A DNA stretch of 64,000 nucleotides, from contig JAYUFZ010000018.1 of assembly GCA_043767845.1 (NCBI GenBank), positions 3,312-67,311 of the forward strand. The letters run 5' to 3'. The notes beneath the pieces were generated by a model. That model was not told the origin of the DNA. It was given only the letters and a program-made list of their open reading frames with translations, and searched no databases. Below, one piece after another: positions 3,815-22,270 of this stretch. A program made the position numbers and the translations under genes. This DNA is from a bacterium. GTDB taxonomy: Bacteria; Patescibacteriota; Saccharimonadia; UBA4664; JBBRNT01. Position 1 is the stretch's first letter. Each line of letters opens with the position of its first letter.

Positions 3815-4189
3815 TTAGACGCGGCCGGCGACGAAGGTGACGGCGGCAAATGCCAATGAGGCAACAATGATGCCGATGATAGCATAGAGAATGGTGTTTT
3901 TGGCACCTTCGACAGCACTGGAGTTACCACTGGAGAGGACGTAGCGGAAACCACCAATGATCAGCATGATCACTGAGATGGCGCCTACTAGGAAGATCAA
4001 GGTGTTTGCAACCTTGCTGAAGATACCGCCAGCACCGAACAGTACGTTGGTGGCGTTGTTTGGCTGTGAGCCATTGATGCCGTTAATCAGGTCATCTGGG
4101 GCAGCCATTGCTGTACCGGCCAGCACGAGCGATGAGGTTGCTACTGCTGTAGCTTTCGCCGCAAAATTATTAATAGTGCTTACTTTCAC
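3815..4189 (-). CDS. T4SS pilin candidate (VirB2/TrbC-like), paralog 1 of 5
   Basis: Signal peptide (...LAGTAMA|AP), then two hydrophobic helices joined by a short polar loop: 'LIFLVGAISVIMLIIGGFRYVLSSGNSSAVEGAKNTILYAIIGIIVASLAF'. Same topology as VirB2/TrbC pilins and adjacent to VirB6/VirB3/VirB4 genes. Confidence 0.5.
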   Translation of the reverse strand: MKVSTINNFAAKATAVATSSLVLAGTAMAAPDDLINGINGSQPNNATNVLFGAGGIFSKVANTLIFLVGAISVIMLIIGGFRYVLSSGNSSAVEGAKNTILYAIIGIIVASLAFAAVTFVAGRV

Positions 4190-4277
4190 GTTTTCTCCTA
4201 TGCGTCTAATAAATTTATGAGATTACTTAGCATTATCATACCATACAGGGCACAAATGCAAGCTAGACTAAGCCGGA

Positions 4278-4649
4278 TTACACACGCGCGGCAATGAAAT
4301 GCGAAATTGCAAAGGCCATGCTGGCTACGATCAAACCGATAATGGCGTAGAGAATCGTATCCTTGGCCCCGCTCACCGCACTGGAGTTGCCGCTGGAGAG
4401 GACGTAGCGGAAACCACCAATAATGAGCATAATCACCGAGGCGGCCCCGACAATGAATACTAGCGTATTGGCCACGGCCATAAACACGCCTCCCGGAGCG
4501 AATAGCTCTGTTTTGGCGCCAGCCGGCTTGGTGTTATCAATGCCGTCGGTCACGGCTTTGATGGCGCCATATACCGGGGATGACAGGGCGAGGCTAAAAC
4601 CTACAATGGCAGCGGCTTGAGTTCTTTTGATGAGTGTTTGAACAGACAT
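4278..4649 (-). CDS. T4SS pilin candidate (VirB2/TrbC-like), paralog 2
   Basis: Start moved to ATG 4649 (MSVQTLIKR...), preceded by AAGGAGA at -6..-12; the track start 4721 overlaps the upstream paralog. Carries the shared motif 'GGFRYVLSSGNSSAVSGAKDTILYAIIGLIV'. Confidence 0.5.
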   Translation of the reverse strand: MSVQTLIKRTQAAAIVGFSLALSSPVYGAIKAVTDGIDNTKPAGAKTELFAPGGVFMAVANTLVFIVGAASVIMLIIGGFRYVLSSGNSSAVSGAKDTILYAIIGLIVASMAFAISHFIAARV

Positions 4650-4668
4650 GATTGTCTCCTTAGGTGGT

Positions 4669-4974
4669 TTAGAAACGGCCCGAGATAAAGGACGAGATAG
4701 CATAGCCGGAAGCGGCCACAATAATACCTACTACAGCATACAGAATACCATCCTTGGCGCTCTTTACAGAGCTTGAATTACCGGCCGATATGACATAACG
4801 AAGGCCACTTACGATAAGGACAATTACCGAGATGACGCCGACAATGAGCAGCAAAGTGTTAACAATCTTTACTGCTACTTCAGAAAGTGAGCCGCTAAAG
4901 AAGCCGGGGCCGCTATCAACAATACCAGTGTTACCAACTGTGATATCAGCCAAGAAGGGGAGTATGTGGTGCAT
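4669..4974 (-). CDS. T4SS pilin candidate (VirB2/TrbC-like), paralog 3
   Basis: 'LLLIVGVISVIVLIVSGLRYVISAGNSSSVKSAKDGILYAVVGIIVAASGYAI': same two-helix hairpin and motif. Confidence 0.5.
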   Translation of the reverse strand: MHHILPFLADITVGNTGIVDSGPGFFSGSLSEVAVKIVNTLLLIVGVISVIVLIVSGLRYVISAGNSSSVKSAKDGILYAVVGIIVAASGYAISSFISGRF

Positions 4975-4989
4975 AGTGGTTTTCCGAAA

Positions 4990-5325
4990 TTAAAATAGTG
5001 TCGTTGCAAAGGCCAGGATCGCCCAGGTCGATAGCGTTACAATAAGCCCAATTACCGCGTAGAGCAAGGTGTCCTTGGCAGTTTTAGTACCGCTCGGGCT
5101 ACCAGCCGATAGAACATATCGCAAGCCGGCGACCACTATGAAGATGACCGACAGCGTGCCGGCGATGAAGAGAGCCAGGGCAACGACATTGTGGATGAGT
5201 TGCTGCACTGCGAACAAGCCGCCAGTCGTACTGTTGTTTGGGTCAACATTCTGGAAAAGCGAGTTTGGCACGGGGTCATCCGCCAAAAGTCTGGGAATAG
5301 TAGCTATAAGTGACCGTAGAATCAT
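4990..5325 (-). CDS. T4SS pilin candidate (VirB2/TrbC-like), paralog 4
   Basis: 'ALALFIAGTLSVIFIVVAGLRYVLSAGSPSGTKTAKDTLLYAVIGLIVTLSTWAILAF': same motif. Confidence 0.5.
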   Translation of the reverse strand: MILRSLIATIPRLLADDPVPNSLFQNVDPNNSTTGGLFAVQQLIHNVVALALFIAGTLSVIFIVVAGLRYVLSAGSPSGTKTAKDTLLYAVIGLIVTLSTWAILAFATTLF

Positions 5326-5328
5326 TGG

Positions 5329-5841
5329 TTAAATTCCTATTAAACGAAGAATGAAGAACATTAGGCTCAATACTATCAGACCGACGACGGCGTTGGCGAT
5401 GCGGTTTTTGGCTTTCTTGATAGCATCCGGGCTGCCCTGGGAGGAAATGAACTGTATCCCCGACACAATAATAACCAGCGCCGCCAACCCGCCAATAATC
5501 CCAAACAACCAGTTGATGGCGAATTCTAAGAGGGCGAAAATGGGGTTTTTATTCGTGCAGTTGAGTGTTAGGCCGGGAGTTGTAACCTTATCGCAGGTGT
5601 ATGGATCAGGTTGTGCAGGATTATTGCCAACTGCGGTACTGGTGTGGCTGTTGCAGTAAGCAACGCCTCCATCATCCTTAATCTCGTTCTCTGGAATAAC
5701 TGTCACGCCATCCGGGCAAAGCGCAGCCGCTCGAGCTACGGGAACGGAGGAGGGTTGAAGAGCTAGCCCGATTAAACCCAGTATAATTTGGAGAAATATC
5801 CCAAACGAAAGCATTAACACAAATTTGTAAAAACGTTTCAT
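5329..5841 (-). CDS. T4SS pilin-like paralog 5 with Cys-rich extracellular insertion
   Basis: Start uncertain (ATG 5841 MKRFYKF... or 5904). N-terminal TM, then a ~80-aa segment with 6 Cys (CPDG..YCNSH..YTCDK..LNCTNK). C-terminal 'IIGGLAALVIIVSGIQFISSQGSPDAIKKAKNRIANAVVGLIVLSLMF' matches the paralog motif. Confidence 0.45.
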   Translation of the reverse strand: MKRFYKFVLMLSFGIFLQIILGLIGLALQPSSVPVARAAALCPDGVTVIPENEIKDDGGVAYCNSHTSTAVGNNPAQPDPYTCDKVTTPGLTLNCTNKNPIFALLEFAINWLFGIIGGLAALVIIVSGIQFISSQGSPDAIKKAKNRIANAVVGLIVLSLMFFILRLIGI

Positions 5842-5957
5842 TGCCGTGATTGTAGCCGAATTCAGGTTGCAAGCGCAAGGGGAGGGCTGTGGAGTAGACT
5901 CCAAGCAAAGCCGTTAATTCAACCTTTTTACTATCTTTAAGCCCTATTTGCCAGCGT

Positions 5958-5998
5958 AAGCAAATTGCTTTGACAAACAGGAGTAAATAGTGTAGAAT
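5958..5998 (+). promoter_or_regulatory. near-consensus sigma70-type promoter for the VirB6-like operon: -35 TTGACA (5970-5975), 17-nt spacer, -10 TAGAAT (5993-5998), abutted by palindrome AAGCAA-A-TTGCTT (5958-5970)
   Basis: Hexamers and spacing read directly. The palindrome touching the -35 is a candidate operator in the divergent pilin/VirB6 intergenic region. Confidence 0.55.
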
Positions 5999-6037
5999 AC
6001 GAGATTCGTGAGCGCCAGAAACTAACGCTAATTAGCC

Positions 6038-8617
6038 ATGAGACATTTCTTCAAAAAATTTAGCCACACACCCCTTGTGCTTGGCCTTGGCGCCGTGGCG
6101 CTAGCTGTTGCAGTCCTTTTGAGCCCGGCCAAAGCAATGGCGGCCAGCGAAAGCTATTTCTATGGCCCGAGCTCCAATTTCAACACCGTCGTCGGCCAAA
6201 ACGGCGTCTTCGCCAAACCGACAGCCTTTACGCTAGCTTCGGAAACTGCTGATGCCAGGACTTATACCGCTACCCAATCCGTCACCTGCAGCAGCAAACC
6301 GGCCACTTCGACGCTTACACTGGTGGCCAAAAAAACCGACGGCAGCGGAAGCTTGGCAGTCGACGCTGCCACCGCCAGCTGCTATACCAGCGCCCCCGAT
6401 GCCACCATAGCTGTAGCCGACACCCAGGCGGCTGCCAAGCCGACAGTTCAGACTGCCGCAGCTGGGACTCCCGCGACAAGCAGACCCGCCGTCAAGCGAT
6501 GTGATGGTGGAGTTCTTACTTGGTTTCTATGTTCGCTCTATGATTGGATACTCAAATCAATCGACCAGATTGAACAAAACGTCATCGTACCCTTCCTCAA
6601 GATAGACCCGCTGGTCTTTGGAGACGCCAACAACCCCGGGTATGCCATTTGGCAAGGCGTGCGTACTCTAGCAAACGTCGTCTTTGTCTTGGCCTTTTTG
6701 GTCATTATATTTGCCAACACTCTTTCGCTGTCACTTGATAGCTACTCACTCAAAAAAACTCTGCCCAAGCTTGTAGCCGCGGCTATCCTGGTGCAGTTCT
6801 CATACTTAATCGTTGGGCTGGCCATCGACCTTACCAATATCGTTGGCTCTGGCCTAGGTGATTTGGTCATGACGCCCTTCAAGGTCGCCCAGCAGACCCA
6901 TATTAGTAATGGTGTAGCGGCGGGCCTCTGGGGCGTCGGCATCGCTGGTAGTATTTCCGCTACCTTGGCGCTCGCTAGTGGCGTGCTGACCGGTGGCATT
7001 CTATTCGTATTAATCGGTGCTTTCTTCGCAGTATTGGGCGTATTCTTAACGCTCGTGGCACGGCAGATTCTCGTGACACTACTGCTTATACTCTCTCCCT
7101 TGGCCTTCGTTGCTTGGGTGCTACCAAATACTAGCCATTACTTCACTATGTGGCGCAAATCGCTGACACGGCTACTAGTGATGTACCCGATTGTCGTTTT
7201 ACTGTTTGTGAGCGGCAAAATATTTAGTACCGTTACAGTGGCAGCCAACGGTGGTGGCGCAGGTAATGACACAATTCGTTCCCTTATAAGTGTCGTCGCT
7301 GGCGTTATTCCACTCTTCCTAATCCCTGCCGCCTTCAAATTTGCCGGTGCCGCGCTCTCAACAGTAGATGGCCTCATGCAGACAGTCCATGGCCGTAGCC
7401 GCAAAGCCTTCGAGGGATCGGGAGTTTACGAGCGGGCAAAAGCCCGTACAGACCAGCGCCGCACCGAACTGGCTAGCGGAAATAAGATTAAGTTCCTGGG
7501 CTCCAAGAAACTAGGCGACGCAATTACGGGCAATAGCCTCACGACATTAACAGCTCAGGGTCTGCCAGGCCTACTCTCGTATGGGGCCGATCACGCGCGG
7601 GCAAGCCTCAAGGGCGTTCCTTATGCTGGCTCGCACCAAGACGTCAAGGCTGTCTCTGACTTCATGAAAGAACGCAACGCCTGGGCTAAACGCCTTGAAG
7701 AAGAAGGCTTAAGCTTCAATGCCTATGCCGTACTAAGTAGAGGCAATAAGTGGGCCGACAAAGAAATAACTGACCTTAATGGCAAAGCTCAAACTGCTGC
7801 TACATCATCGCAAACTGCTGCTCAAACTGCTGCGAACTTCACGGCTGCTGCTCAAGCCTCTCGCCAAGCTGCGCAACAAGCAACAGCCGCGGGCAATACG
7901 ACCCTCGCAACGCAACTCAGCCAAACAGCCACCCAGCAAGATAGCGAAGCTTCCCGCCAGACGGCAATTTCCACGAGCCAGGCACGCAAGCACAGCGGCT
8001 TTCTTAGTGAAGTTAGCTCCATGCAAGGGGCAAAGCTGGAAGCAAGCCGCTATATGGGCGTCAGCGCCGCCCGTGTAGCTGCATTTAAACACCTTTCTGA
8101 CATCGATGTAGCTGGTGAGGACGACCTGAATGCACTTAAAAATTACTCTGGTATGGACGGAGGCTCAACAGTCGGTAAGTTGCTCGCTACCCAGAATTGG
8201 GAGCAACTAAAAGAAGGTGCACGAAAGACTAATGTACACTTGGCTTATAAGAATGTTGATGGCAGTATTGACAACACTGAGCTCTACAAGTTTGTTCAAA
8301 AGAAGAATAAAACAGCCTGGGCTGATTACTCGCTGGATGCCATCCATCACATGGCAGAAACCGGCATCTTGCATGAATTAGCAAAAGATGAAGGTATGCG
8401 CAAAACACTTACTGGAGCAACAAGCCTAGAGGGTGGTCCAAGCCTGGCTGCCCCGCAGGACGTCTTAGTACGCAAAATTCTCGCTGAAACCGACCCTGAT
8501 CCAGCCGTGCGAATCAATGGAACTTTCTCAAGCTACAACAAAAATACGGTCAAGACCTTTACTAAGGCCCAAAAGGACCAATCCAAAGCGAGCGCTGATA
8601 CTCTCGATTTCTCATAG
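6038..8617 (+). CDS. VirB6/TrbL-like T4SS polytopic membrane protein (paralog 1) with secreted N-domain and low-complexity C-terminal tail
   Basis: Signal peptide; conserved 'CDGGVLTWFLCSLYDWILKSIDQ...GYAIWQGVRTLANVVFVLAFLVIIFANTLS' block; about six TM segments. Paralogous to the next gene. Tail is Gln/Ala/Thr-rich. Confidence 0.6.
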   Translation: MRHFFKKFSHTPLVLGLGAVALAVAVLLSPAKAMAASESYFYGPSSNFNTVVGQNGVFAKPTAFTLASETADARTYTATQSVTCSSKPATSTLTLVAKKTDGSGSLAVDAATASCYTSAPDATIAVADTQAAAKPTVQTAAAGTPATSRPAVKRCDGGVLTWFLCSLYDWILKSIDQIEQNVIVPFLKIDPLVFGDANNPGYAIWQGVRTLANVVFVLAFLVIIFANTLSLSLDSYSLKKTLPKLVAAAILVQFSYLIVGLAIDLTNIVGSGLGDLVMTPFKVAQQTHISNGVAAGLWGVGIAGSISATLALASGVLTGGILFVLIGAFFAVLGVFLTLVARQILVTLLLILSPLAFVAWVLPNTSHYFTMWRKSLTRLLVMYPIVVLLFVSGKIFSTVTVAANGGGAGNDTIRSLISVVAGVIPLFLIPAAFKFAGAALSTVDGLMQTVHGRSRKAFEGSGVYERAKARTDQRRTELASGNKIKFLGSKKLGDAITGNSLTTLTAQGLPGLLSYGADHARASLKGVPYAGSHQDVKAVSDFMKERNAWAKRLEEEGLSFNAYAVLSRGNKWADKEITDLNGKAQTAATSSQTAAQTAANFTAAAQASRQAAQQATAAGNTTLATQLSQTATQQDSEASRQTAISTSQARKHSGFLSEVSSMQGAKLEASRYMGVSAARVAAFKHLSDIDVAGEDDLNALKNYSGMDGGSTVGKLLATQNWEQLKEGARKTNVHLAYKNVDGSIDNTELYKFVQKKNKTAWADYSLDAIHHMAETGILHELAKDEGMRKTLTGATSLEGGPSLAAPQDVLVRKILAETDPDPAVRINGTFSSYNKNTVKTFTKAQKDQSKASADTLDFS

Positions 8618-8637
8618 ATTCACCGTCACGTTTTTAA

Positions 8638-8670
8638 ATAGACCACCCATTCTCAGCGGTCTATTTTTTT
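8638..8670 (+). terminator. rho-independent terminator (TAGACC-acccattctcagc-GGTCTA + T8)
   Basis: Hairpin followed by TTTTTTTT, 20 nt after the stop of VirB6-like paralog 1. Confidence 0.6.
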
Positions 8671-8699
8671 TGCCCCGCCGATGTAGTACCATAACTAGT

Positions 8700-11600
8700 A
8701 TGAGAAGAGGTGTAGCAAAGGCTTGGTTAGCGGCATTGGGGCTGTCGCTAGTTTTGCCATTCCTGATTTCTGAAGGCGCTCTGGCCGCCCCACTTAGAAA
8801 AGGTGTTTGGCAAAATGATTCTGCCATTCTTTTTGATGCAAAAACCTTCATCAACAAAACTGGCGACGGGTCTGGCTCTTTTGTGTATGCCAAAGATAGT
8901 AAAGGTGTCGATATTCCTACATCCGACAATAATAATATTTATTGTGTTAAGGATGGAGATAAGATATTTGTGCAACTGGGACAAACTTACAGCGACTTTA
9001 GTACAAATTACGGCATCCCATTCTATGTAATTCGCGATATAAACGATGCTCATGATCGAGCCAACTATGATGTATATGCAAGACTTCTCGTCAATAATAA
9101 CGGTGCAGTATTAACACAGACTCAGTTTAATAGTAAAAAAGGTAGTGAGTCAGTACCAATCAGCTATTATATCCAGTGTCGCAAGACTCAAGCTGAAGAG
9201 CCTATTGAGCTTACAAATGCCTCTGTATCAACTGACGCGTATGCCTGGAAATGGAAAAACGAAATTGATTCCACGAATGGTAAGAAGGCTTGGATATTAA
9301 ATAGCACTGATCCCAAATTCCCTGTAGGCTCCTACGTTTGGCAGGCGGATACAAACCATGATGGCTGCAAAGAATATATCGTACCTAGTGCCGATGGTAC
9401 TAAAGGCAAAAGATATCATGGCGGAGGAAACTCAGCTGGAACTCCACCGCACTGTATCTACGACGATCCGCCAGAAGATATTACTATTGCTAACGCTACC
9501 CATAAAGACGATACGACGGATCCCGGTACCTCCCCTGGTAATCCAGTAAATCCAGGCGGATCAGGCAAGGCTAGTTGTGATGCTGGCGTCCTCGGATGGT
9601 TCTTGTGTCCAGTAATTCGCATGGCCGTGAACCTCTATCAGATTTTGAGCGACCAAGTCATCAAACTACTCGATCTAGGGTCTCTTGAAAGTGGTAGCAA
9701 TGTATTTCTTATATGGCAGAATATGCGCAATTTGGCCAATGTGCTCTTTGTATTAATCTTCCTGATTATCATATTCTCGAACACTCTCTCAATAGGTATT
9801 GATAATTACACCTTTAAAAAGATGCTCCCACGCCTCGTTGCCGCAGCGGTTCTTGTTCAGTTTTCCTGGGTAATCATGACCCTACTATTTGATATCACAG
9901 CGGCAGTTGGAGCGGGGATCGGTGACCTTATTAGTCTGGCAGTAGGTAGCGGTGTACCGAGTGCAGGTAGTACACCTAAAGGCTTTGCGCTAGTCGGAAC
10001 GGCCTTCGGGTTGCTTGGCATTGGCGGGGGGGCGATCGCTGCCATTGTACTTTTTCCTGAGCTCCTGATCCTAGCGCTTCTCTTTACAGTTGGGGCCCTC
10101 TTCGGAATCATGGCAGTATTCTTTACCATTACGATACGTTCTTTCTTGCTTTCCATACTAGTGGCAATTGCGCCGCTAGCTTTTGTGGCTTGGATCCTAC
10201 CAAATACCGAGAGCTACTTTAAAACCTGGTGGAAGACACTTATTCGACTGCTGCTCATGTATCCAATTATCAAGGCGATGTTCGCCTTCGCCGAGGTAGG
10301 CGGCCTACTTACGGTAGGATCAAATTTCTCTAATTTGCATAATGGGCTCGATAAGGCGATGGCGGGCGTTATGGCCGCCCTTTTGCCAATTGTAGCCTTC
10401 TACGCTACCACAAAAGTCTTTACCTGGGCGGGCGGTGCGATGTCGCTGTTTAGCAATGCAGTCAACAAGCGGGCTAGATCGGCCCAAGCGCGCATCGCTA
10501 AGTCCAACGTGCGACGAGACGCAAAAGTCGGGCTTACGAATCGGGTTGCAAACTTCAAAGCTGGTGGTGGGCTTAAGGTGCCACTAAGTTCTAGTCCTAT
10601 CCTAAACAGTGACTCCAGGCTGGGTAGGGCCGCAGCTGGGGCTGCGCGTATAGCTACCCTGACTTCCAAGAATAATGCTACAAGAGGTCGTAATACTGCT
10701 GCAAAGGCAGCTGGGGAAGCAATGGCACTTGAAGGCTGGACGGCGGATGATTATAAAATGCAGATGGGCCAAAAAACTTACTACGACAGCCAGACCGCCG
10801 ATCTCAAAAAGAAAGTCCAATCAGGTGAACTCACGCAGGCAGAGGCAGATCTTAAGCAGTCTAAGCTAAAAGCCAGTCGAGACCGTACCGAGAAGTATTG
10901 GGGAAGTAGTTCGAGGTCTCTTGCTGCTCAACAAAACCTCACTTCAAATGGCTTAGTCGACGACAGTACCCGACAAAACATTATTGACCGGTTCGGCAAG
11001 GACCAGTTTGCCCAGCAACTTTGGACTAATTCAGCAGCTACTGCACGAAACTCTAATCCCCAGCTTATGTTTACAAGCCTGGAGAGCGATGCAGCAGGCA
11101 AGCCGGTAATTGATCGAGCAGGGCTTAAGAGTCATCTGGCTAAGCAGAATCAAGCCACCTGGGCAAGCTTCAGTGAACCGGCTATTCAATCTATGGCCGA
11201 TAACGGTATCCTTGACGAATTCGCCAATGCCAGTAGCTCGAATGCCGAGCTTCTCCTTTCACTTCGATCAAACGAAGGCGGCCCTAGTATTGGTGCTGCT
11301 CAGCAAGCAATTATTGCCGGGGCAGGCACGCACAAAGACGACGCCGGCGTAATTCACAACCCTGGGTCCGTCAACAGGGCGATTGATGCAGTAGCTGCGT
11401 CCAGGGCAGCTGCACGGGCCACTGTAGGGACACCGGCAGGTTCAACAACAACTACCACAACAACTGCCGGCGGTGTTAGTGGCTCAGCGGCCAGCGCGTG
11501 GGCTCCGCCAAGTGGCGGCCTACCAGTCGGCAGCACAGTCCCAAGTATAGGTGGCGTTACCCCAGTCGCGACTCCAGTACCGACCGCGAGCGGTAAGGTG

Positions 11601-12398
11601 GCTTCCGTTGGAGGCTCCAGTTCTGGCGGTGTACTTGGCGGCGTTCTTGGTAGCAGTGGATCTTCAGGCGGCGGCGGTTCATACAGTCCAGGAGTTACGG
11701 CCTCAGCCGTTAGCAGCACACCGGGAAACCCCGGTGCCAACCCAAATACTTCCCGGATTACCCCACCGAGCTCAGTTGGCTGGACACCGACAGCTAGTGG
11801 CTCAGGGCTAGTAATCCCACCGAGCTCCGGCGCCCCGGCACCTACCGTATCAGGCCCGTCAGCACCATCACCAGAAGAGTTAGCCGAACGTGTTGAGCGA
11901 AGCGTGTTCGACGCTACAGCTGCAGCAAGAAAGGCAGCCGATGCAGGAGCTGCAGCAGCAGCCGCTACTTCAACCCCAACGGGCGCATCATCTGGCACCA
12001 CCACAGACTATGCCCCCGGATCAGGCATAAGCAACCCGGATATCGACGTTAAGGTCGAAGCCCCGAGCTCAGCAACAGTCCTCCCCTCGACAGCAGGTGC
12101 AGTACCATTCAGCGCAGGAGCGCCAGCTAGTACAGGGAATAGCAGCGCAACTGGTAGCCCAGCAGCAGGCATGGCCAATCCAGCCCCAGCTCTAGCCACG
12201 CCACCATCAAGCAAGCCTGTCGCGGGTCCAACAAATATGCCCACCAGCGAACCAAACAGCGGCCCAGCAGCTGCAAGCCCGACCCTGGACATCAACTCCA
12301 CGGAGCTACCCAGCCGCCCCTCACTCGGTGAAATAATTAGACCGACCGTAGCCTCCCCAGATGAGACCCCTCCGGCCGATCCACCAACGACTCCATAG
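8700..12398 (+). CDS. VirB6/TrbL-like T4SS polytopic membrane protein (paralog 2), 1232 aa, with ~600-aa Ser/Thr/Pro/Ala/Gly-rich C-terminal tail
   Basis: Start moved to ATG 8700 (MRRGVAKAWLAALGLSLVLPFLISEGALA = signal peptide), downstream of the terminator. Conserved 'CDAGVLGWFLCPVIRMAVNLYQ...FLIWQNMRNLANVLFVLIFLIIIFSNTLS' plus TM bundle. The tail has TTTTTT, SSGSSGGGGS and AAAAAAT runs. Confidence 0.6.
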   Translation: MRRGVAKAWLAALGLSLVLPFLISEGALAAPLRKGVWQNDSAILFDAKTFINKTGDGSGSFVYAKDSKGVDIPTSDNNNIYCVKDGDKIFVQLGQTYSDFSTNYGIPFYVIRDINDAHDRANYDVYARLLVNNNGAVLTQTQFNSKKGSESVPISYYIQCRKTQAEEPIELTNASVSTDAYAWKWKNEIDSTNGKKAWILNSTDPKFPVGSYVWQADTNHDGCKEYIVPSADGTKGKRYHGGGNSAGTPPHCIYDDPPEDITIANATHKDDTTDPGTSPGNPVNPGGSGKASCDAGVLGWFLCPVIRMAVNLYQILSDQVIKLLDLGSLESGSNVFLIWQNMRNLANVLFVLIFLIIIFSNTLSIGIDNYTFKKMLPRLVAAAVLVQFSWVIMTLLFDITAAVGAGIGDLISLAVGSGVPSAGSTPKGFALVGTAFGLLGIGGGAIAAIVLFPELLILALLFTVGALFGIMAVFFTITIRSFLLSILVAIAPLAFVAWILPNTESYFKTWWKTLIRLLLMYPIIKAMFAFAEVGGLLTVGSNFSNLHNGLDKAMAGVMAALLPIVAFYATTKVFTWAGGAMSLFSNAVNKRARSAQARIAKSNVRRDAKVGLTNRVANFKAGGGLKVPLSSSPILNSDSRLGRAAAGAARIATLTSKNNATRGRNTAAKAAGEAMALEGWTADDYKMQMGQKTYYDSQTADLKKKVQSGELTQAEADLKQSKLKASRDRTEKYWGSSSRSLAAQQNLTSNGLVDDSTRQNIIDRFGKDQFAQQLWTNSAATARNSNPQLMFTSLESDAAGKPVIDRAGLKSHLAKQNQATWASFSEPAIQSMADNGILDEFANASSSNAELLLSLRSNEGGPSIGAAQQAIIAGAGTHKDDAGVIHNPGSVNRAIDAVAASRAAARATVGTPAGSTTTTTTTAGGVSGSAASAWAPPSGGLPVGSTVPSIGGVTPVATPVPTASGKVASVGGSSSGGVLGGVLGSSGSSGGGGSYSPGVTASAVSSTPGNPGANPNTSRITPPSSVGWTPTASGSGLVIPPSSGAPAPTVSGPSAPSPEELAERVERSVFDATAAARKAADAGAAAAAATSTPTGASSGTTTDYAPGSGISNPDIDVKVEAPSSATVLPSTAGAVPFSAGAPASTGNSSATGSPAAGMANPAPALATPPSSKPVAGPTNMPTSEPNSGPAAASPTLDINSTELPSRPSLGEIIRPTVASPDETPPADPPTTP

Positions 12399-14418: not shown

Positions 14419-16269
14419 ATGGCCTTCGGAAAAAAAGTTGATCCAAACGCTCAGGCAGAGGCGGTAAAGCGCCAAGAACAGGCTGAAGCCGAGCAGATTT
14501 ACCGCCAGGGAATCGTCTCGCTGCGCGACCTGATTGCTCCGCCATCGCTGGAGATTGAGTCTGGCTATTTCCGCATCGGCAAGCGCTTTGCTCGGACAAT
14601 ATTCGTCTACGGCTACCCCCGCCAAATATTCACCGGCTGGATGTCACCGATCATAAATCTCGATGAAGTGCTGGACCTTAGCATTAATATTTATCCGGTC
14701 GAGTCAGCCGTCGTTTTAAATAACCTGAAGCGTAAGGTAGGCCAGCTAGAGGCCGATTTCACCATCAACCAGGAAAAGGGGAGAGTACGCGACCCCGGGC
14801 TTGAAGCCGCCATCCAGGACGCCGAGGAATTGCGCGACAAGCTCCAGGTCGGCGAGGAGCGCTTCTTCCGTTTCGGGCTATATGTCACGATGTACGCTGG
14901 CACGCTTGAGGAACTCAATCAAGTACAGCGCAAGATCGAAGGCATATTCGGCCAATCACTTATCTATACCAAGCCAGCTACCCTTCAAATGGAGCAGGGC
15001 TTTAATTCCAGCCTACCGCTCGGCGCCGACCAGCTCCAAGTGTCGAGAAATATGGATACTGGTTCGCTTTCGACAAGCTTCCCCTTCACCTCGGCCGAAC
15101 TCAGCCGCAATGAAGGCGTGCTCTACGGCCTCAACCGCCACAATAACGGTCTAGTGCTCTTCGACAGATTTAGCCTGGAAAATGCCAATATGGTTGTCTT
15201 CGCTAAATCCGGTGGTGGTAAATCCTTCGCCGTGAAGCTTGAAGCCGTACGCAGCCTGATGCTCGGCGTTGAGATATTGATTATCGATCCCGAGAACGAG
15301 TACCAGACGCTCTGCGACGCAGTTGGCGGTAGCTACCTTCGCCTCAGCCTAGCCTCGGCCACCCGCCTGAATCCCTTCGATCTGCCGCACGTACTCGATA
15401 GCGAGGATGCCGACAACGCTTTGCGCGCCAATATTATTACCCTCCATGGCCTTTTGCGACTGATGATGGGGGGTGCCCAAGCCCAAGCCATGGGTGCGGC
15501 TACCGGCGGCATGGTCTCGAGTGCCAATGCTCTCAGCCCAGCCGAGGACGCTGACCTCGACGTGGCCATCATAAATACCTACGCCCGCGCCGGGATTACC
15601 AATGACCCACTGACCCATGGCGCCACCCCACCAACCATGAACGATCTCTACAACACGCTAGTAAGTATGACTGGCAACGGTCCAGCCCTAGCCCAGCGTC
15701 TGCGTAAATACACCACGGGTACTTTTTCTGGAATCTTTAGCCAGCAGTCCAACGTCGATATCAATAATAAGTTTGTGGTCTTTAATATTCGTGACCTAGA
15801 AGACGAGCTCCGCCCAGTGGCTATGTACATTGTGCTCAACTACATTTGGAACCGGGTCAAAAGTGATAAGCGCAAACGTATTCTGATAGTCGACGAAGCC
15901 TGGCAGCTCATGAAGTACGATGACTCCGCCAACTTCATGTTCTCTATAGCCAAGCGCGCCCGTAAGTATTACCTCGGCCTCACTACTATTTCGCAAGATG
16001 TGGAAGATTTCTTAAGCTCCAGGCTTGGTAGGGCAGTGGTCTCCAACTCCTCACTTCAACTCTTGCTCAAGCAAGCGCCCTCTGCCGTCGACCTCATAGC
16101 CGATACCTTCAAGCTGACCGACGAGGAAAAGAAACGCCTTACCCAATTCCCGGTGGGCGAGGGCCTCTTCTTCGCGGGCCTCAACCATATTATTATTAGA
16201 ATACTGGCCTCACAAACTGAGTCGCAACTCATAAGCACGAACCCGCAACGAAGAGGGGACGGAGTATAG
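14419..16269 (+). CDS. virB4: VirB4/TraE-family T4SS ATPase (ATPase portion)
   Basis: Walker A 'VVFAKSGGGKSFAVK', Walker B 'ILIVDEAWQLM', and 'RTIFVYGYPRQIFTGWMSPI' typical of VirB4. Starts 2 nt after the previous stop, in a different frame. Confidence 0.8.
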   Translation: MAFGKKVDPNAQAEAVKRQEQAEAEQIYRQGIVSLRDLIAPPSLEIESGYFRIGKRFARTIFVYGYPRQIFTGWMSPIINLDEVLDLSINIYPVESAVVLNNLKRKVGQLEADFTINQEKGRVRDPGLEAAIQDAEELRDKLQVGEERFFRFGLYVTMYAGTLEELNQVQRKIEGIFGQSLIYTKPATLQMEQGFNSSLPLGADQLQVSRNMDTGSLSTSFPFTSAELSRNEGVLYGLNRHNNGLVLFDRFSLENANMVVFAKSGGGKSFAVKLEAVRSLMLGVEILIIDPENEYQTLCDAVGGSYLRLSLASATRLNPFDLPHVLDSEDADNALRANIITLHGLLRLMMGGAQAQAMGAATGGMVSSANALSPAEDADLDVAIINTYARAGITNDPLTHGATPPTMNDLYNTLVSMTGNGPALAQRLRKYTTGTFSGIFSQQSNVDINNKFVVFNIRDLEDELRPVAMYIVLNYIWNRVKSDKRKRILIVDEAWQLMKYDDSANFMFSIAKRARKYYLGLTTISQDVEDFLSSRLGRAVVSNSSLQLLLKQAPSAVDLIADTFKLTDEEKKRLTQFPVGEGLFFAGLNHIIIRILASQTESQLISTNPQRRGDGV

Positions 16270-16272
16270 ACC

Positions 16273-19266
16273 ATGGCACTACTGGAGGATGAGAAATTAG
16301 TTCCGGCAGACGACTTACCCAAGCACAGCAAGGGCGAAAGTAAGCTGAGCGAGTCAGTCTCCGACTCCGACGTTGATAGCCGTTTCAATGAATTAGCAAG
16401 CTCCACGCCGGCCATTTCCGATAACGAAGCAGCCAATCGCTACGCCGAGCAAACCGCCCCCGAGGATCAGTACACCAGTGATGGCAACGAACGCCCAAGC
16501 AGATTCCAAGGTACCGTAAAGAAGCTGCGGAAGAGGCGAGGACTACTCATTGGCGGCACTATCACCGCCGCACTGGTAGGTTTTTTAATATTTATCATCC
16601 TATTTCTGATCGGGTTTAAGCTCAACCACATTAAGAACCTCATGCTAGACTACGAGTTCGCGAGCTTTAATCGAGCTCTTTCTAAAGAAATGAACCACAT
16701 GATAACCGAGGACGCTATACTGTCCGAGGGAAGTGGCAGACTTCCTCAGATCGATACTCCAAGTCTAATTGATAAGCTGCGCGGCTACGACCCCGATACC
16801 ATCCTTCGTAATCTTGGGAATGCTGGAATGGAGCTCGATTTCGAGCCAGGTCGCTTGGGTGTCAAGGGTAAGTTAAGGAGTATCACCACACCAGAAGGTG
16901 AAGTCTACTGGCGCGAGGGGGCGGCGGGAACACCGCCGGCTAATGCAAAATCGCTATCAGACGGCGAATTCTTAACCAAGTATAAATCCACAATAGATAC
17001 TCAATTGGTTGATGAAAGAGGTTTTATCCGACGAAGCGTCTGGAAAGACCTTCGCGAGAATAGCGGCATCTCCTTCGCTAAATGGAAGGAATTCCTCGAG
17101 AAATTCAAGGCAATAGACCCTACACCAGAAGAAGCAAGAGCTACTTCACGAGCTGAGAATGACGCCACTATAGCCGACGGGCAAACCATCACTGGAGAAA
17201 ATGTAGACGGACTTGAGGAGGGTGCCAAGCAGGCTGCAGCCGATCATAAGGTCGGCCTGCTGGAGGAGGAGATTAAGCCCAGGTTAAGCGAGCGATTTGG
17301 GCTCGGAAGTAAGATCGCCACAGTGTCACAGGTAGTTTTCTATTTAACTGTTATATGTATTGCCCACGACATATATGCCTCCCTAGAGAAAATTATGGTC
17401 AATAAAAGTGATAGTCTCATGCGTGAAGCAGCCGACTTAAACACCAAGGCAGATCAGCAGAAATATGGTAGTGATCAAGTAACAACTGCCGCTATTAACC
17501 AATCGAATAACGAGTATGATGGCATGGAGGCAGGCGCGGCCTACCAAAGAGCAGCGGGCGAGCCAGTTGCTCTCGACAGTAAGGGTAACCCAGTCAATGA
17601 TCTTCCTGAAGAAGACTACCCCCAGCAAATCATAGGTATGAAGCTAAATGCTTTTGTTACCATCGCCAAAACCGCTGATACCGTGGCTACCGCTGCTGCT
17701 GCTGCTATTATTGCAGGGCCGGAAGCAGCGGCTGTCTGCGTTGCTTCTGACTTCCTGAGCAAAATACCCTTTATTGGACGAGCTGCTGCCTTCATAGCTG
17801 GACACACAATTTCAAAACTATGTAAAAACGCAGCTGATGTTTTTTATAGAGTCGTCTGTAAGCCAATTCTTGATCCTAGATTTCAAATTGGCCTAGCAGT
17901 AGCCGAAATTGGACTCGTCTGGCTTGATGGTGGCCTAAAGGCAGTACTAGCCGCATTTACAGAGGCACTACCTAGACTGGCGCTGCAATACGCCGGAACT
18001 GAGATCTTATTTGGGCATATTATCCCAAGCCTCATGGAAGATCTATCAGGCTTTCACCATAGCGGCCAAGAGACTGCTCCAACGCGTATCGCCAAGGTGG
18101 ACGCAGGCGATAATCTATTAAGAAACTCCACGGCAATGGCAACTGGTGCCCATAAAATTAGTACCAAGAAAGCCCTGCGCGACCAGGCGGTTGCCATAAA
18201 AGAGCGTCAAGATTCCATTCGTAAGCAGAGTCTAGCCTATCGCTGGTTCAACCTCGACAACAACTATTCACTTGCTACCCGCTTCCTGGTAGCAATTCCG
18301 ACCGGCCCACGGAGTATGATGGCAAAGATCAATAGCTTTACCGCCGCCATGCGCAACCCGTTTAGCATTGTGGCTTCATTGAGTACACCAGTTCAAGCCA
18401 GCATAGAGGACTACGGTCCAGAGGCACTCTACGGTATCCAACAATATGGCTGGGATGATACTGAGCTCGATCCGAAGGATGCAACTTTTAACTTTGATAC
18501 CAATACCCACTACGTGGAATCGAAGTACGAAGATTTGCAGAAGAAGTACGGCCAATGTTTCCAGGGCAAGCTCATTGATAGAGAGCTGAAAGGCGCCTTT
18601 GGCGACAGTAAATATGATAACTGTAAGGATGTGGACGCAAAAAGGTTTGGTAAGTACGTACTTGATTGTTACTCGGTAGAACAACTGCTCTCCCAAGGAT
18701 CGACGGACGATACCTATAATAATAGTGACTGTTCAGCGGTTGTGAAAGGCGAGAAAGGGGCTGACAGTACGCCCAACCCATCTAACGACGATACACCAGA
18801 CGATGCCGACATCGGCGCAGGAATTGATACTTCGAGTGTACCCTGCGCCGCAGGGACCGACGCCGGCATTCAAGAAACGTATCAAAAGAATTCCATTCAC
18901 CTCTGCACCGTCGGTGGCATTACCGTAAACGCATCTATCTCCGGCCAGCTAAATAGCTTGTTAACCAAGGCTAAAGCCGCAGGCATAACCCTCACTGGTA
19001 GCGGCTTCCGCAGTTACAAAACACAAATACAGCTCCGAAAAGATCACAATTGTGCCGATATTTACACGGCCTCTGCCAAGACTTGTAATCCGCCCACGGC
19101 AAGACCAGGTACCTCTATGCATGAGCAGGGCTTAGCAATAGATTTCTCGGGTATCGGCCAGCACGATCCAACAAACCCTAAATTCATCTGGCTCTCGGCA
19201 AATGCTGGTCCCGACTTCCAGAACTTACCCTCAGAATCATGGCATTGGTCGACAAATGGACGCTAA
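16273..19266 (+). CDS. membrane-anchored T4SS-associated cell-wall hydrolase, C-terminal peptidase M15 (VanY / D-Ala-D-Ala carboxypeptidase-like) domain
   Basis: Single TM (LLIGGTITAALVGFLIFIILFLIGF) after a ~95-aa cytoplasmic N-terminus. C-terminal 'FRSYKTQIQLR...GTSMHEQGLAIDFS' matches the M15 Zn-binding SxHxxGxAxD motif. Confidence 0.6.
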   Translation: MALLEDEKLVPADDLPKHSKGESKLSESVSDSDVDSRFNELASSTPAISDNEAANRYAEQTAPEDQYTSDGNERPSRFQGTVKKLRKRRGLLIGGTITAALVGFLIFIILFLIGFKLNHIKNLMLDYEFASFNRALSKEMNHMITEDAILSEGSGRLPQIDTPSLIDKLRGYDPDTILRNLGNAGMELDFEPGRLGVKGKLRSITTPEGEVYWREGAAGTPPANAKSLSDGEFLTKYKSTIDTQLVDERGFIRRSVWKDLRENSGISFAKWKEFLEKFKAIDPTPEEARATSRAENDATIADGQTITGENVDGLEEGAKQAAADHKVGLLEEEIKPRLSERFGLGSKIATVSQVVFYLTVICIAHDIYASLEKIMVNKSDSLMREAADLNTKADQQKYGSDQVTTAAINQSNNEYDGMEAGAAYQRAAGEPVALDSKGNPVNDLPEEDYPQQIIGMKLNAFVTIAKTADTVATAAAAAIIAGPEAAAVCVASDFLSKIPFIGRAAAFIAGHTISKLCKNAADVFYRVVCKPILDPRFQIGLAVAEIGLVWLDGGLKAVLAAFTEALPRLALQYAGTEILFGHIIPSLMEDLSGFHHSGQETAPTRIAKVDAGDNLLRNSTAMATGAHKISTKKALRDQAVAIKERQDSIRKQSLAYRWFNLDNNYSLATRFLVAIPTGPRSMMAKINSFTAAMRNPFSIVASLSTPVQASIEDYGPEALYGIQQYGWDDTELDPKDATFNFDTNTHYVESKYEDLQKKYGQCFQGKLIDRELKGAFGDSKYDNCKDVDAKRFGKYVLDCYSVEQLLSQGSTDDTYNNSDCSAVVKGEKGADSTPNPSNDDTPDDADIGAGIDTSSVPCAAGTDAGIQETYQKNSIHLCTVGGITVNASISGQLNSLLTKAKAAGITLTGSGFRSYKTQIQLRKDHNCADIYTASAKTCNPPTARPGTSMHEQGLAIDFSGIGQHDPTNPKFIWLSANAGPDFQNLPSESWHWSTNGR

Positions 19267-21049
19267 ACGGTATCTTCTCAACCTCACCATGATCGTCATG
19301 ATGTTCTCTTCTATGGTGATTACTCCAGCCGCTTATGGCTTTTCAGACGCAGATCGTAATGCCATGCTCAATGATAGTGTTTGGTTTGACTCCTCCAATG
19401 TTACATGCGGCACCAACTCCGGCGGTACTGCACCTGGTAGTGGCGGTTTATATAGCCCCTTCTATCCCACAGGAGCAAATGAAGCACAATTGGCACAGAG
19501 CATCGTAGACTACATCACCAAAAGGCAGCCGAGTTCTCCACTCATTCCACTAGCGGGGAGCTTCGTTTCGCTTGGCAAAGCAGCTAATGTAAACCCAGCG
19601 ATGGCTGTCGGCATGTCTCAGATTGAGACCTCTTTCGCGACTGCTGGCCACGCCGCACCCCCGCTCTATAATTTCTTTAATGTGAGAAATGGACCAGGGG
19701 GTACGTTTGGTAGTATGCCCGGCTACATTGGGGCACTACAGAACTACTATGATCTGATTAGTGGTCCTGTTTACCTGAGCCCACCAACAAGCTTCACAAC
19801 GGTAAATGAGATCGTAAATAAATATGCACCACTCGGTGATGGCGCCAATGACCCCACAGCCTACACGAACGTAGTGAATAATGCTATGAAGGACATCCTT
19901 GGTGGAGCCGGCGCAACTGCCGCAAGCGGGTCGGCTGACACAGGCGCTACCACCAGCGGTACACTTACGAGCCTGCCCACGAGCGTCCCGGAACCATACC
20001 GCACCCTGTTTCCGAAAGCAGCCCAAGCCTTCAATATGGATCTTGGGATATTAACTACCATATTTTATACGGAGAACCGCGGGTTCCCCAATCCACCACC
20101 ACCCTATGGGACGGGACGTGCATGGAGAACATCGTCAGCTGGTGCGCAGGGTCCATTCCAGTTTGTGCCGGGTACCTGGGCAGGACAGGTCGCTGCTGTG
20201 AAAACGGCACTAGGCAAAACCAGCGTGGACATCCTTGATCTCACCGATGCCGCCTATGGCGCGGCACACTTCCTGGAATCGCTTGGTGGTACAGCTGGTA
20301 TTCCACTGGGCAGCAAAGATAACCCCAAACAACGGCCAAGCGTTATCGATGTATTCGCATCATATAATGGAGGCCCGGGCTATCCCGTACCTTTAGTCGC
20401 CGAGACATCACAGTACATCGATATTGCCACGAAGTTCTACCTTGCACTCACTGGTGGCAGTCTCGGCACGACCCCGACTATTTGTGGGGGCGGGGGCGGC
20501 GGTATAGGAATTGGCACCGATGGCTTTGTCTTTCCACAACGAACCACCAAATCGGCCCTGAAAGCCGCCGGCTTCAATGTAAATTGTGTAAATACGGGTC
20601 CAATTGGCCAATGCCATCACGATTATCTAGCAGCTGATATCTTCAATTCGACCGGAACACCCGTGGTAGCAGCTCGCCCAGGAAGAGTAGTCTCGGCGCA
20701 TGACGGCGGTAATATCAGTACAGGTGGCGGATCAATCGGTATGACCGTCCGAATCTATAGCGACACAGCGTTGGGAGGCGATGGGCTTTGGTATTACTAT
20801 GCCCATATGCTTAAGCCACAAGAATCACCAGCTGGTGGGCTCAAGGTAAAAGACGGCGATATCGTGACTGCTGGTCAGGATTTGGGTGTCGTAGGGACCG
20901 ATGCCGATGCCGAGGGCACGCCATCACACACCCATTTCGATGTGAGCCCCGTAGAAAATAGCTTCCATCGTGGCCACGACGGGAGTGCCGGGCCGCTACT
21001 CGACCCCTATCCAGCTCTAAGAGCAAGTTATGCTAACTTACCGGATTAA
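19256..21049 (+). CDS. bifunctional peptidoglycan hydrolase: lytic transglycosylase (SLT) + M23 (LytM) peptidase
   Basis: Start at ATG 19256 (signal peptide MDAKRYLLNLTMIVMMFSSMVITPAAYG), overlapping the upstream stop. SLT motifs 'YTENRGF...GPFQFVPGTW...AAYGAAHFL'. M23 motifs 'HHDYLAADIF' (HxxxD) and 'HTHFDV' (HxH). Confidence 0.7.
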   Translation: MDAKRYLLNLTMIVMMFSSMVITPAAYGFSDADRNAMLNDSVWFDSSNVTCGTNSGGTAPGSGGLYSPFYPTGANEAQLAQSIVDYITKRQPSSPLIPLAGSFVSLGKAANVNPAMAVGMSQIETSFATAGHAAPPLYNFFNVRNGPGGTFGSMPGYIGALQNYYDLISGPVYLSPPTSFTTVNEIVNKYAPLGDGANDPTAYTNVVNNAMKDILGGAGATAASGSADTGATTSGTLTSLPTSVPEPYRTLFPKAAQAFNMDLGILTTIFYTENRGFPNPPPPYGTGRAWRTSSAGAQGPFQFVPGTWAGQVAAVKTALGKTSVDILDLTDAAYGAAHFLESLGGTAGIPLGSKDNPKQRPSVIDVFASYNGGPGYPVPLVAETSQYIDIATKFYLALTGGSLGTTPTICGGGGGGIGIGTDGFVFPQRTTKSALKAAGFNVNCVNTGPIGQCHHDYLAADIFNSTGTPVVAARPGRVVSAHDGGNISTGGGSIGMTVRIYSDTALGGDGLWYYYAHMLKPQESPAGGLKVKDGDIVTAGQDLGVVGTDADAEGTPSHTHFDVSPVENSFHRGHDGSAGPLLDPYPALRASYANLPD

Positions 21050-21052
21050 CTT

Positions 21053-22270
21053 ATGAAGAATATACGAAAAATTGGGATTTTCATCGCACTAGGACTCTTA
21101 TTAACCATCGGTTTGAACGTTTTTATTAACTACCTTTCTACTGGTAGCCTGATTGTCGAAGTAAACATTAAAGATTCCGTTGTGGTAGTACAGAAGGTCG
21201 GCGAAAAAACGACGAGTACGTTCAAGGCTGGCTCCTCTAAACGCCTGAAAGCCGGTAGCTACCTAGTTATTGCTACAGCCAATGGACTTCAGACAAGTGG
21301 CAAGGTAGATGTACGTCGCTTAAAAGACTCCTTATTGAGCCTTACACTAATACCACTTCTAGAGCCTATCAAACTTGCCAGCTACCCAGCGCGAGATCTG
21401 CATTTACTAGGCAATGGTGACATAATATTTGTGAATACTGAATTTAGCGAATTGGAACGCCTACCGAGTGGCCAATCCCAGATGCAGCCATATCTAAGTA
21501 GTTTTTATCAAATCCATGATGCGACCTGGCTAAACGAAACCCAGGCGCTCGTTACAGACATGAGGAATAATCCGTTCTTACTACAATCAGGTAAGATTTC
21601 ACTCATCACACTTGAAGCACCGGGCCTTATTAACGGCGTAATAGACCCGGACAGACTTATTCTCAACGAATTCGGACACATTATCTTCAACTACAACGAT
21701 AATTACTATCTTAAGACATCAGCCGCTACACCAAGTAGCGTTATCTCTTTTGTTACTAGTAATAGTGATGTGGCTGTTTCGGCAGACGGGAAGGTACTTC
21801 ACTACCCAAAATATAGCGGCAGCGAAGGTGGCAAAACCGATGCAAAGAAAATTGCATATGGCGTAACTAACTTAGCTGGAAAACAACTGCCAAACATGGT
21901 AGCAAAAAACGGCGTAGTAGGTTCGGCTAGCTGGTCACGAGATAGCCAGAAGGTCGCCTATTCTGACAACTCCGGTCTCTATGTCTACAACTTTGGCTCA
22001 CAGACAAATACTCAGATTGTTGCTTATGAGGTTCCCTTGGCAAAAACTCTTACTTGGCTGGATGATAATAGTTTAATTTATGCCTACAAGAACCAAATAT
22101 GGAAGGCAAGTGTTAAAGAACAAGCCACTACTGCCATTGCTAACTTTAAAGGGAGTATTAATCCCTTCCATGCCTTTAGTGTAAGCGCCGACGGAAAAAC
22201 CGTCTATTTCGCCACCGAATCACTCGACCCACTCCACCCAGGCTCAATCTATAGCCTAAGCCTGAAGTAG
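21053..22270 (+). CDS. N-terminally membrane-anchored protein with TolB/PD40-like beta-propeller repeats; last gene of T4SS locus
   Basis: TM 'IGIFIALGLLLTIGLNVFINYL'. Repeated 'DG...VYFA/YSDNSGLYVY' beta-strand-rich units. 4 nt after the upstream stop. Confidence 0.4.
   Translation: MKNIRKIGIFIALGLLLTIGLNVFINYLSTGSLIVEVNIKDSVVVVQKVGEKTTSTFKAGSSKRLKAGSYLVIATANGLQTSGKVDVRRLKDSLLSLTLIPLLEPIKLASYPARDLHLLGNGDIIFVNTEFSELERLPSGQSQMQPYLSSFYQIHDATWLNETQALVTDMRNNPFLLQSGKISLITLEAPGLINGVIDPDRLILNEFGHIIFNYNDNYYLKTSAATPSSVISFVTSNSDVAVSADGKVLHYPKYSGSEGGKTDAKKIAYGVTNLAGKQLPNMVAKNGVVGSASWSRDSQKVAYSDNSGLYVYNFGSQTNTQIVAYEVPLAKTLTWLDDNSLIYAYKNQIWKASVKEQATTAIANFKGSINPFHAFSVSADGKTVYFATESLDPLHPGSIYSLSLK

Follow-up and report, generated by a model that had tools for sequence, protein, structure and literature searches.

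The window analysed here is a stretch of 64 000 nt (64 kb) from contig JAYUFZ010000018.1 (assembly GCA_043767845.1) of a bacterium of the class Saccharimonadia. At positions 3815–22270 it carries a block of genes encoding a type IV secretion system (T4SS), which is very probably the canonical, vertically inherited T4SS of the Saccharibacteria. Gene content was determined by scanning the open reading frames (ORFs) of the window against the Pfam and NCBIfam families. The ORF listing and the family scans placed five pilin genes on the minus strand at the left of the block, followed by eight machinery genes on the plus strand; the two divergent sets are separated by an intergenic region of 196 nt, and the machinery genes are tightly packed, their spacing ranging from −14 to 136 nt. 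The gene inventory that a preceding sequence-only reading had given for this block was borne out, most of the matches to profile hidden Markov models (HMMs) lying above the curated cut-offs and the VirB6, SLT and propeller assignments being reached through family, homologues or fold. Starts other than those of the mechanically called ORFs were considered likelier at positions 4649 (pilin 2), 5841 (pilin 5), 8697 (VirB6b), 13343 (TrsD-like protein), 19256 (SLT/M23 hydrolase) and 22538 (DciA-like ORF) because of signal peptides; independent gene calls concurred for pilins 2 and 5.

Each of the five minus-strand ORFs scored above the Pfam gathering cut-off for T4SS_pilin (30.6–39.6 bits, compared with 26.6 bits) and each was predicted from its transmembrane (TM) profile to possess a signal peptide and two hydrophobic helices. 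These VirB2-type pilins are divergent, alignment giving 28–58 % identity to pilin 1. Pilin 1 (3815–4189) has 124 aa and scored 30.6 bits, whilst pilin 2 (4278–4649, 31.7 bits) has 123 aa when read from the ATG at 4649, in a mechanical ORF that extends to 4721; the independent gene call also gave 123 aa, and the protein shares 58 % identity with pilin 1. Pilin 3 (4669–4974, 101 aa, 34.0 bits) additionally matched DUF6112, and pilin 4 (4990–5325) has 111 aa and scored 37.2 bits. The highest score, 39.6 bits, was obtained for pilin 5 (5329–5841, in an ORF reaching to 5904), which has 170 aa, in agreement with the independent gene call, possesses a longer, Cys-containing N-terminal extracellular segment and matched the NCBIfam Mbov_0395 pilin-like family (E=2.9e-6).

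The first two machinery genes encode extended VirB6/TrbL-like proteins, VirB6a (6038–8617, plus strand, 859 aa) and VirB6b (8697–12398, plus strand, 1233 aa from the ATG at 8697). VirB6a comprises a signal peptide, a beta-rich outer domain (residues 39–127), a helical polytopic core (158–480) and a long helical C-terminal domain (533–817), and VirB6b has an outer domain of about 290 aa and a C-terminal tail of about 560 aa that is rich in S, G, P, T and A (window positions ~10700–12398). The two are paralogues, with 35 % identity over the TM core (E=1e-59). Neither gave a Pfam match in the direct scan. TrbL was matched by 12 of 33 members of the VirB6 family, the Pfam match stored in databases for the window protein and for most of its homologues is TrbL_3, and the top Foldseek matches in the PDB of an AlphaFold2 (AF2) model of the VirB6-like protein were TrwI/VirB6 of R388.

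Downstream lie, all on the plus strand, genes for a PrgI/VirB3-like membrane protein of 273 aa (12535–13356; Pfam PrgI, 50.2 bits, cut-off 27), a TrsD-like protein of 357 aa (13343–14416; NCBIfam TrsD, E=6e-8) and a short-form VirB4 ATPase of 616 aa (14419–16269). The VirB4 scored 373.5 bits against the NCBIfam equivalog conju_CD1110, for which the cut-off is 325 bits, which places it in the MPF-FATA class and upholds the proposal of a Gram-positive-type (single-membrane) T4SS core. It covers positions 174–730 of the 752 positions of that model and aligns with residues 214–774 of an 804-aa plasmid VirB4, so that the first ~200 residues of single-chain VirB4s are missing; a profile of the protein matched the VirB4 C-terminal domain in PDB entry 4ag5 (E=5.6e-59). 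The TrsD-like protein is a stand-alone VirB4 N-terminal-like domain (residues ~25–226). It matched the N-terminus of VirB4_plasma, the NCBIfam family for the VirB4 of a mycoplasma integrative and conjugative element (ICE), with E=8.6e-9, and the 14 best Foldseek matches of its AF2 model in the PDB were all TrwK/VirB4. More than 3613 homologues were found, which are typically 245–255 aa long and carry the JGI name ‘VirB4 component’; the window protein additionally ends in about 110 disordered, P/Q/A-rich residues (window positions ~14100–14416), a C-terminal tail that is missing from such typical members. The late start of the short VirB4 relative to the CD1110 model and the 804-aa protein means that the ‘split VirB4’ noticed by the sequence-only reading is real, the TrsD-like protein resembling the N-terminal domain of VirB4 by both sequence and fold. 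The pair is the known TrsD+TrsE-type arrangement.

The last three genes of the operon encode envelope proteins. A 997-aa membrane protein with TM segments (16273–19266, plus strand) ends in an M15B (VanY/LdcB-type) peptidase domain (VanY, 37.1 bits, cut-off 25), and the family profile matched VanY/LdcB structures in the PDB with E ~1e-21. It is followed by a 597-aa signal-anchored hydrolase (19256–21049, plus strand) with a lytic transglycosylase-like region at residues ~257–393 and an M23 peptidase at 478–582 (M23, 40.5 bits, cut-off 28.7). The SLT match of this protein was below threshold by itself (17.3 bits, cut-off 21.3); residues 257–393 are 35–44 % identical to proteins elsewhere that score above threshold for SLT or SLT_2. 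Its predicted role is VirB1/PrgK-like. The final gene (21053–22270, plus strand) encodes a 405-aa membrane-anchored protein in which an N-terminal TM helix and a beta-rich segment precede a TolB/WD40-like beta-propeller. This assignment came from comparing the family profile with the PDB (WD40 structure 2ymu, E=2.7e-19; TolB, E=3e-12), the matches of the single sequence being weak. A word-indexed search returned zero homologues of the protein, and an exhaustive HMMER search found 167 relatives with 21–31 % identity. The family is divergent; its profile detected ORFs at the same position in 16 related loci, where they are mostly the last before recF.

In order to place the block among its relatives, one genome per species was scanned with VirB4; at least 558 loci were confirmed, of which 80 were used for comparison, and gene order in these 80 was established by tblastn with all window proteins as queries. 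VirB4 was 66–84 % identical across the 80 loci, nearly all of which are labelled Saccharibacteria or Saccharimonadales. Identity of 80 % or more was found in only four of the 80 loci drawn from the 558 or more, which indicates that the window comes from a poorly sampled lineage of the Saccharimonadia. The gene order was conserved and comprised comF, hsp20, the minus-strand pilins, one or two VirB6 genes, PrgI, TrsD, VirB4, further plus-strand genes and then recF, dnaN and dnaA. Of the 52 loci whose downstream sequence extends to 9 kb or more, 49 reached recF/dnaN/dnaA; where the upstream sequence does so (49 loci), PrgI and TrsD were each present in all 49, VirB6 in 45 and pilins in 35. A ComF/GntX-like gene, a conserved left neighbour, occupied the same position in 21 of the 80 loci, and Hsp20 did so in 28 of the 49 loci with sufficient upstream sequence. 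Median identities within the same genomes were 68 % for VirB4, 48 % for TrsD, 48 % for DnaA, 47 % for DnaN, 40 % for RecF, 35 % for PrgI and ~31 % for VirB6. The higher identity of VirB4 shows the ATPase to be more strongly constrained than DnaA, the initiator of replication, whilst the surface-exposed parts evolve fast.

Loci of this type have been described before. A conserved T4SS region with VirB4, VirB6, PrgI, GntX and four to six small secreted proteins was reported in Saccharibacteria, with a ComF/GntX-like gene beside the region in TM7x and an array of small secreted proteins that was likened to ptx/ptl (McLean 2020, PMC7427843). In Candidatus Southlakia epibionticum ML1, transposon sequencing (Tn-seq) showed the cluster SEML1_0006–0019 to be essential, with the exception of the VirB8-like SEML1_0012; the cluster resembles Gram-positive conjugative systems, its six pilins are essential, and coupling and relaxase proteins are absent from it (Wang 2023, PMC10633639). 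According to the tables of that paper, the ML1 order is dnaA, dnaN, recF, SEML1_0004, 0005 (PEGA), 0006 (lysozymes and a cysteine protease), 0007 (1113 aa, with a C-terminal DD-peptidase fold), 0008 (VirB4, 612 aa), 0009, 0010 (PrgI), 0011 and 0013 (VirB6-like, ~1000 aa) on either side of the non-essential NTF2-like 0012, 0014–0019 (pilins) and 0020 (Hsp20). A survey of 3035 Patescibacteria genomes recovered a monophyletic VirB4 clade nested in MPF-FATA, with transfer between classes being rare, the monophyly being that of the published tree and not of one built in the present analysis (Quinonero-Coronel 2025, PMC12102498). The same survey found TrsD beside VirB4 in 1664 cases, PrgI-type VirB3, VirB6 and 441 arrays of two to 11 divergent pilins, placed the locus near dnaA/dnaN/rnpA/rpmH, and reported relaxases to be nearly absent and 5713 VirD4 homologues to lie mostly far from virB4. 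A 2025 review of T4SS nomenclature treats the Patescibacteria system as a distinct T4SS type.

The window locus agrees with these descriptions and corresponds to that of ML1 in nearly every gene. With ML1 it shares the class of organism, the chromosomal site between dnaA-dnaN-recF and Hsp20, the lack of a relaxase or coupling protein in the locus, and the order of the pilin array, two VirB6-like proteins, PrgI, TrsD-like protein (~290 aa in ML1), VirB4, large protein with a C-terminal DD-peptidase (M15), hydrolase and, after these, small exported proteins; the 997-aa protein is the counterpart of SEML1_0007 and, by position, the 597-aa hydrolase that of SEML1_0006. With the Patescibacteria-clade T4SSs (PMC12102498) and the TM7x region (PMC7427843) it shares the VirB4 type, TrsD beside VirB4 with PrgI upstream, VirB6/TrbL, the pilin array, the absence of a relaxase, the vicinity of dnaA/dnaN/rnpA/rpmH and the GntX/ComF neighbour, and no categorical difference was found. 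We therefore regard the block, with high confidence, as the vertically inherited T4SS of the ‘Patescibacteria clade’ within MPF-FATA and the orthologue of SEML1_0004–0019, a locus without which ML1 does not grow on its host. The locus is thus already known, and the observation made by the sequence-only reading was correct but not new. Its suggestion that the pilin array and split VirB4 might be a variant did not hold, as both are class-wide and published (1664 TrsD-VirB4 pairs and 441 arrays, PMC12102498; the six-pilin array of ML1, PMC10633639). Nor is the block a local replacement of gyrB beside the origin: the arrangement is that of 49 of 52 relatives and of ML1, in which gyrB is SEML1_0145. 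The claim that a coupling protein is lacking is valid for the locus and for the 64-kb window but not beyond them, given the 5713 VirD4 homologues of Patescibacteria and the type IV coupling protein (T4CP)-like ATPases of ML1, such as SEML1_0142, which lie outside the T4SS locus; one T4CP-like homologue in ML1 was reported not to be essential. As the gyrB position is a property of the class and the missing coupling protein one of the locus, neither is a discovery about the window. The comparison of synteny that the reading had proposed confirmed a conserved order in Saccharibacteria, and its statement that such T4SSs are essential for the epibiotic lifestyle is supported by the Tn-seq data, the essentiality being known only for ML1.

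Several differences from ML1 were apparent. The window encodes five pilins instead of six, an SLT+M23 hydrolase instead of one with two lysozyme-like domains and a cysteine protease, and a single 405-aa propeller protein in place of the PEGA protein SEML1_0005 and the prealbumin-like SEML1_0004; it also has a DciA-like ORF beside recF and long low-complexity tails on TrsD and VirB6b. Between its VirB6 genes the window has no counterpart of SEML1_0012, the intervening space (8617–8697) amounting to only 79 nt. In seven of the nine relatives with two VirB6 genes, an ORF of 230–330 aa with one membrane anchor lies between them; it is also missing in two relatives (L005 and L030), and its counterpart in ML1 is the NTF2/VirB8-like SEML1_0012. 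Its absence from the window fits the non-essentiality of SEML1_0012.

The conjugative MPF-FATA systems (pGO1 Trs, pCF10 Prg and CTn2/CD1110-type) have in common with the window locus PrgI, a CD1110-family VirB4, a large anchored peptidoglycan hydrolase, the same order of these genes (as in the Brevibacillus plasmid NZ_CP144923), the TrsD+TrsE-like split in the pGO1 subclass, and the absence of outer-membrane core components. They differ in carrying a relaxase, MobC and a VirD4-type coupling protein and in being without VirB2 pilins, whereas the window locus possesses a pilin array and duplicated, extended VirB6 proteins, is chromosomal and is fixed at oriC; neither a relaxase nor VirD4/TcpA was found within the 64-kb window. 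The nearest plasmid-borne VirB4s were from the single-membrane bacteria Embleya, Streptomyces, Pontibacillus and Clostridium (30–39 % identity). The order in the Brevibacillus plasmid, MobC-relaxase-VirD4...PrgI-VirB4 (804 aa)-NlpC/P60, shows the ancestral layout. The Bordetella Ptl and Brucella VirB systems likewise encode no coupling protein in the locus, but these belong to the double-membrane MPF-T type and have outer-membrane cores of VirB7/9/10, and the small proteins of the window array are VirB2-type pilins and not toxin subunits.

On this basis a mechanism may be proposed, the steps of which, beyond the parts list, operon layout, conservation and absent conjugation genes, would follow from established T4SS biology. 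Transcription would start in the divergent promoter region at 5841–6038 and run leftwards through the five genes of the pilin operon and rightwards through the eight genes of the machinery operon. The VirB4 hexamer would be docked on the membrane and completed by PrgI/VirB3 and by the TrsD-like protein, the latter being the separate N-terminal part of VirB4. As the sole ATPase in the locus, VirB4 would supply the power for pulling Sec-inserted VirB2-type pilins out of the membrane and for their polymerization on a platform of the two extended VirB6 paralogues. The anchored M15 peptidase and the SLT+M23 hydrolase would open peptidoglycan, that of the cell's own wall and possibly that of the host, with the anchored beta-propeller protein as a putative accessory envelope component. 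The product would be a pilus or conduit at the epibiont–host interface that moves proteins or other macromolecules, and not an apparatus for relaxase-dependent conjugation. Four points weigh against this interpretation. The profile–profile comparison of the TrsD-like protein with VirB4 was not significant; no VirB8-like gene was recognizable in the locus and no homologue was detectable elsewhere in the window; pilus assembly and any cargo are inferred in the source organism; and a coupling protein may be encoded elsewhere in the genome, so that DNA transfer may occur.

It is possible, although rather unlikely, that the system is mainly an importer of host nucleic acids or building blocks, like ComB of H. 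pylori or the archaeal Ced system, and not an exporter of effectors. The locus encodes neither a coupling protein nor a relaxase, the ComF/GntX-like gene is a conserved neighbour, and the ATPase is weakly similar to the DNA-import ATPases CedB and CedD (NCBIfam), but these last matches are confined to the shared P-loop region, and the hydrolases and pilins are equally compatible with export. The T4SS has been proposed in the literature as a route of nucleotide acquisition, comEC being dispensable in ML1, and a 2026 preprint reported a patescibacterium feeding on host RNA, with tubular structures, possibly T4SS pili, seen at the parasite–host interface; direct evidence of import is nevertheless absent for any patescibacterium. 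Even less probable is a purely adhesive pilus that serves host attachment with nothing being transported through it. The divergence of the five pilins suggests surface variation, conjugative pili are mainly attachment organelles (2025 review), and the locus is without a substrate-recruiting ATPase; against this, adhesion and motility are already served in Saccharibacteria by two type IV pili, a pair of large extended VirB6 proteins together with dedicated hydrolases typifies a translocation channel, and the essentiality of the T4SS in ML1 is distinct from that of its type IV pili (PMC10633639).

The composition of the block bears on its origin. Its GC content is 51.3 %, compared with 52.4 % in the other genes of the window, and codon usage of the two was correlated (0.88), although the GC content at third codon positions (GC3) was below that of the neighbours in several genes, namely those for the 405-aa protein (0.43, the lowest in the block), VirB6b (0.45) and the 997-aa protein (0.49). 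No att-like direct repeats were found around the block, only short imperfect repeats, no tRNA gene is adjacent to it, the sole one in the window lying at 52077, and no VirD4, relaxase or integrase domain was present in any scanned ORF of the window, as the sequence-only reading had stated for the block. A decayed ICE or integrated plasmid from which relaxase, coupling protein and integrase have disappeared and which lies beside oriC by chance, to which the descent of the machinery from single-membrane conjugation systems, with a CD1110-family VirB4 and conjugative nearest plasmid homologues, and the low GC3 of the three genes would point, is so improbable that it was rejected, given that site and gene order are unchanged in 49 of 52 relatives and in ML1, and given a VirB4 more conserved than DnaA, the matching overall composition, the lack of att repeats and an adjacent tRNA, of an integrase, relaxase or VirD4 in the window and of variable presence, the monophyletic VirB4 tree with rare transfer between classes (PMC12102498) and the essentiality of the orthologous ML1 locus (PMC10633639). 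The view of the block as a housekeeping host-interaction machine and not a mobile element therefore stands, in line with the fixed site in relatives, the matching GC content and the absence of relaxase, integrase and att sites.

The interval between virB4 and recF is variable in its domains. In the relatives it holds 5–8 kb of plus-strand genes, the layout of which is constant (an anchored protein of ~1000 aa, a hydrolase of 400–1000 aa and one to three smaller exported proteins), and the catalytic domains vary by genome, even among close relatives. Pfam domains in 80 virB4–recF ORFs from 23 loci comprised Phage_lysozyme2 (16), M23 (12), VanY (7), GDSL esterase (7), SLT (4), SLT_2 (4), C39_2 (3), PEGA (3), GH3 (2), Amidase_3 (2) and CHAP (2). 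In the closest relative, VirB4 is 84 % identical and the adjacent 997-aa protein only ~30 %. Because the domains of the interval vary, identity drops in the gene next to virB4 and the propeller family is divergent, it may be speculated that these genes form a cassette that sets host range, with enzymes aimed at the envelope of the host and not at the cell's own wall, and exchanged at host switches; we consider this unlikely. If it were true, the T4SS would be a feeding tube that breaches the host wall, its specificity would be readable from the cassette, and the window would carry the VanY plus SLT/M23 plus TolB-like propeller version. Just left of comF, at 433–2271, lies a gene for a 612-aa protein with Big_5 Ig-like and Peptidase_C39_2 domains; the C39_2 domain also occurs in three virB4–recF ORFs of other loci.

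To the left of the block, the context genes encode a ComF/GntX-like phosphoribosyltransferase (2273–2959, minus strand; Pfam Pribosyltran and DZR_2) and Hsp20 (3058–3504, plus strand; Pfam HSP20, E=2.2e-19), the latter also being found at this position in ML1 (SEML1_0020). In the gap that separates hsp20 from the end of the pilin operon, a perfect palindrome of 17+17 nt (3646–3679, 100 % complementary) flanked by A/T runs is terminator-like in both directions. The best sigma-70-like match in the locus, TTGACA-17-TAGAAT (5970–5998, plus strand), agrees with the consensus at 11 of 12 positions; located between the two divergent gene sets, upstream of the first VirB6-like gene, it is a putative promoter as judged from this consensus match.

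To the right, on the minus strand, the block is followed by a DciA/DUF721-like ORF and by recF, dnaN and dnaA (22531–26560; Pfam). The mechanical DciA-like ORF spans 22272–22736, but the start at 22538 is more likely, so that the gene probably occupies 22272–22538 and encodes 88 aa; it scored 20.4 bits against Pfam DciA (E=5.9e-4), below the cut-off of 24, and among the related loci homologues were detectable only in the three closest (L001, L002 and L004). In the recF–dnaN intergenic region (23636–23742), a 34-nt inverted repeat, 85 % complementary and with 39 nt between its arms, may be a terminator or a regulatory hairpin. Beyond dnaA, rpmH (26867–27004) is followed on the plus strand by rnpA, yidC, jag and mnmE. 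The cumulative GC skew has its minimum at ~27–29 kb of the window and DnaA-box-like 9-mers occur on both sides of dnaA, and the region to the right of the T4SS block is the replication origin region. Beyond the origin, at 29962–45451, lies a long cell-surface polysaccharide cluster that includes several GT1/GT2 glycosyltransferases, an 881-aa Wzy/O-antigen-ligase-like protein, a GDP-mannose dehydratase, a flippase, a methyltransferase and an 838-aa Ig-like protein, and within which the GC content falls to ~46–49 % at 37–43 kb.

The local peculiarities of the T4SS locus (the missing VirB8-like gene, five pilins and the VanY/SLT/M23 hydrolases) are minor. The window contributes a further example from a sparsely sampled lineage of the Saccharimonadia, together with the small comparative points that VirB4 is more conserved than DnaA, that the VirB8-like gene is dispensable and that the hydrolase cassette is variable. 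According to the literature, the T4SS of the Saccharibacteria stands alone in being known to be essential to its own bacterium and, among those from single-membrane lineages, in having VirB2-type pilins, and it is the leading candidate for the means by which these ultrasmall epibionts extract resources from their hosts or manipulate them.

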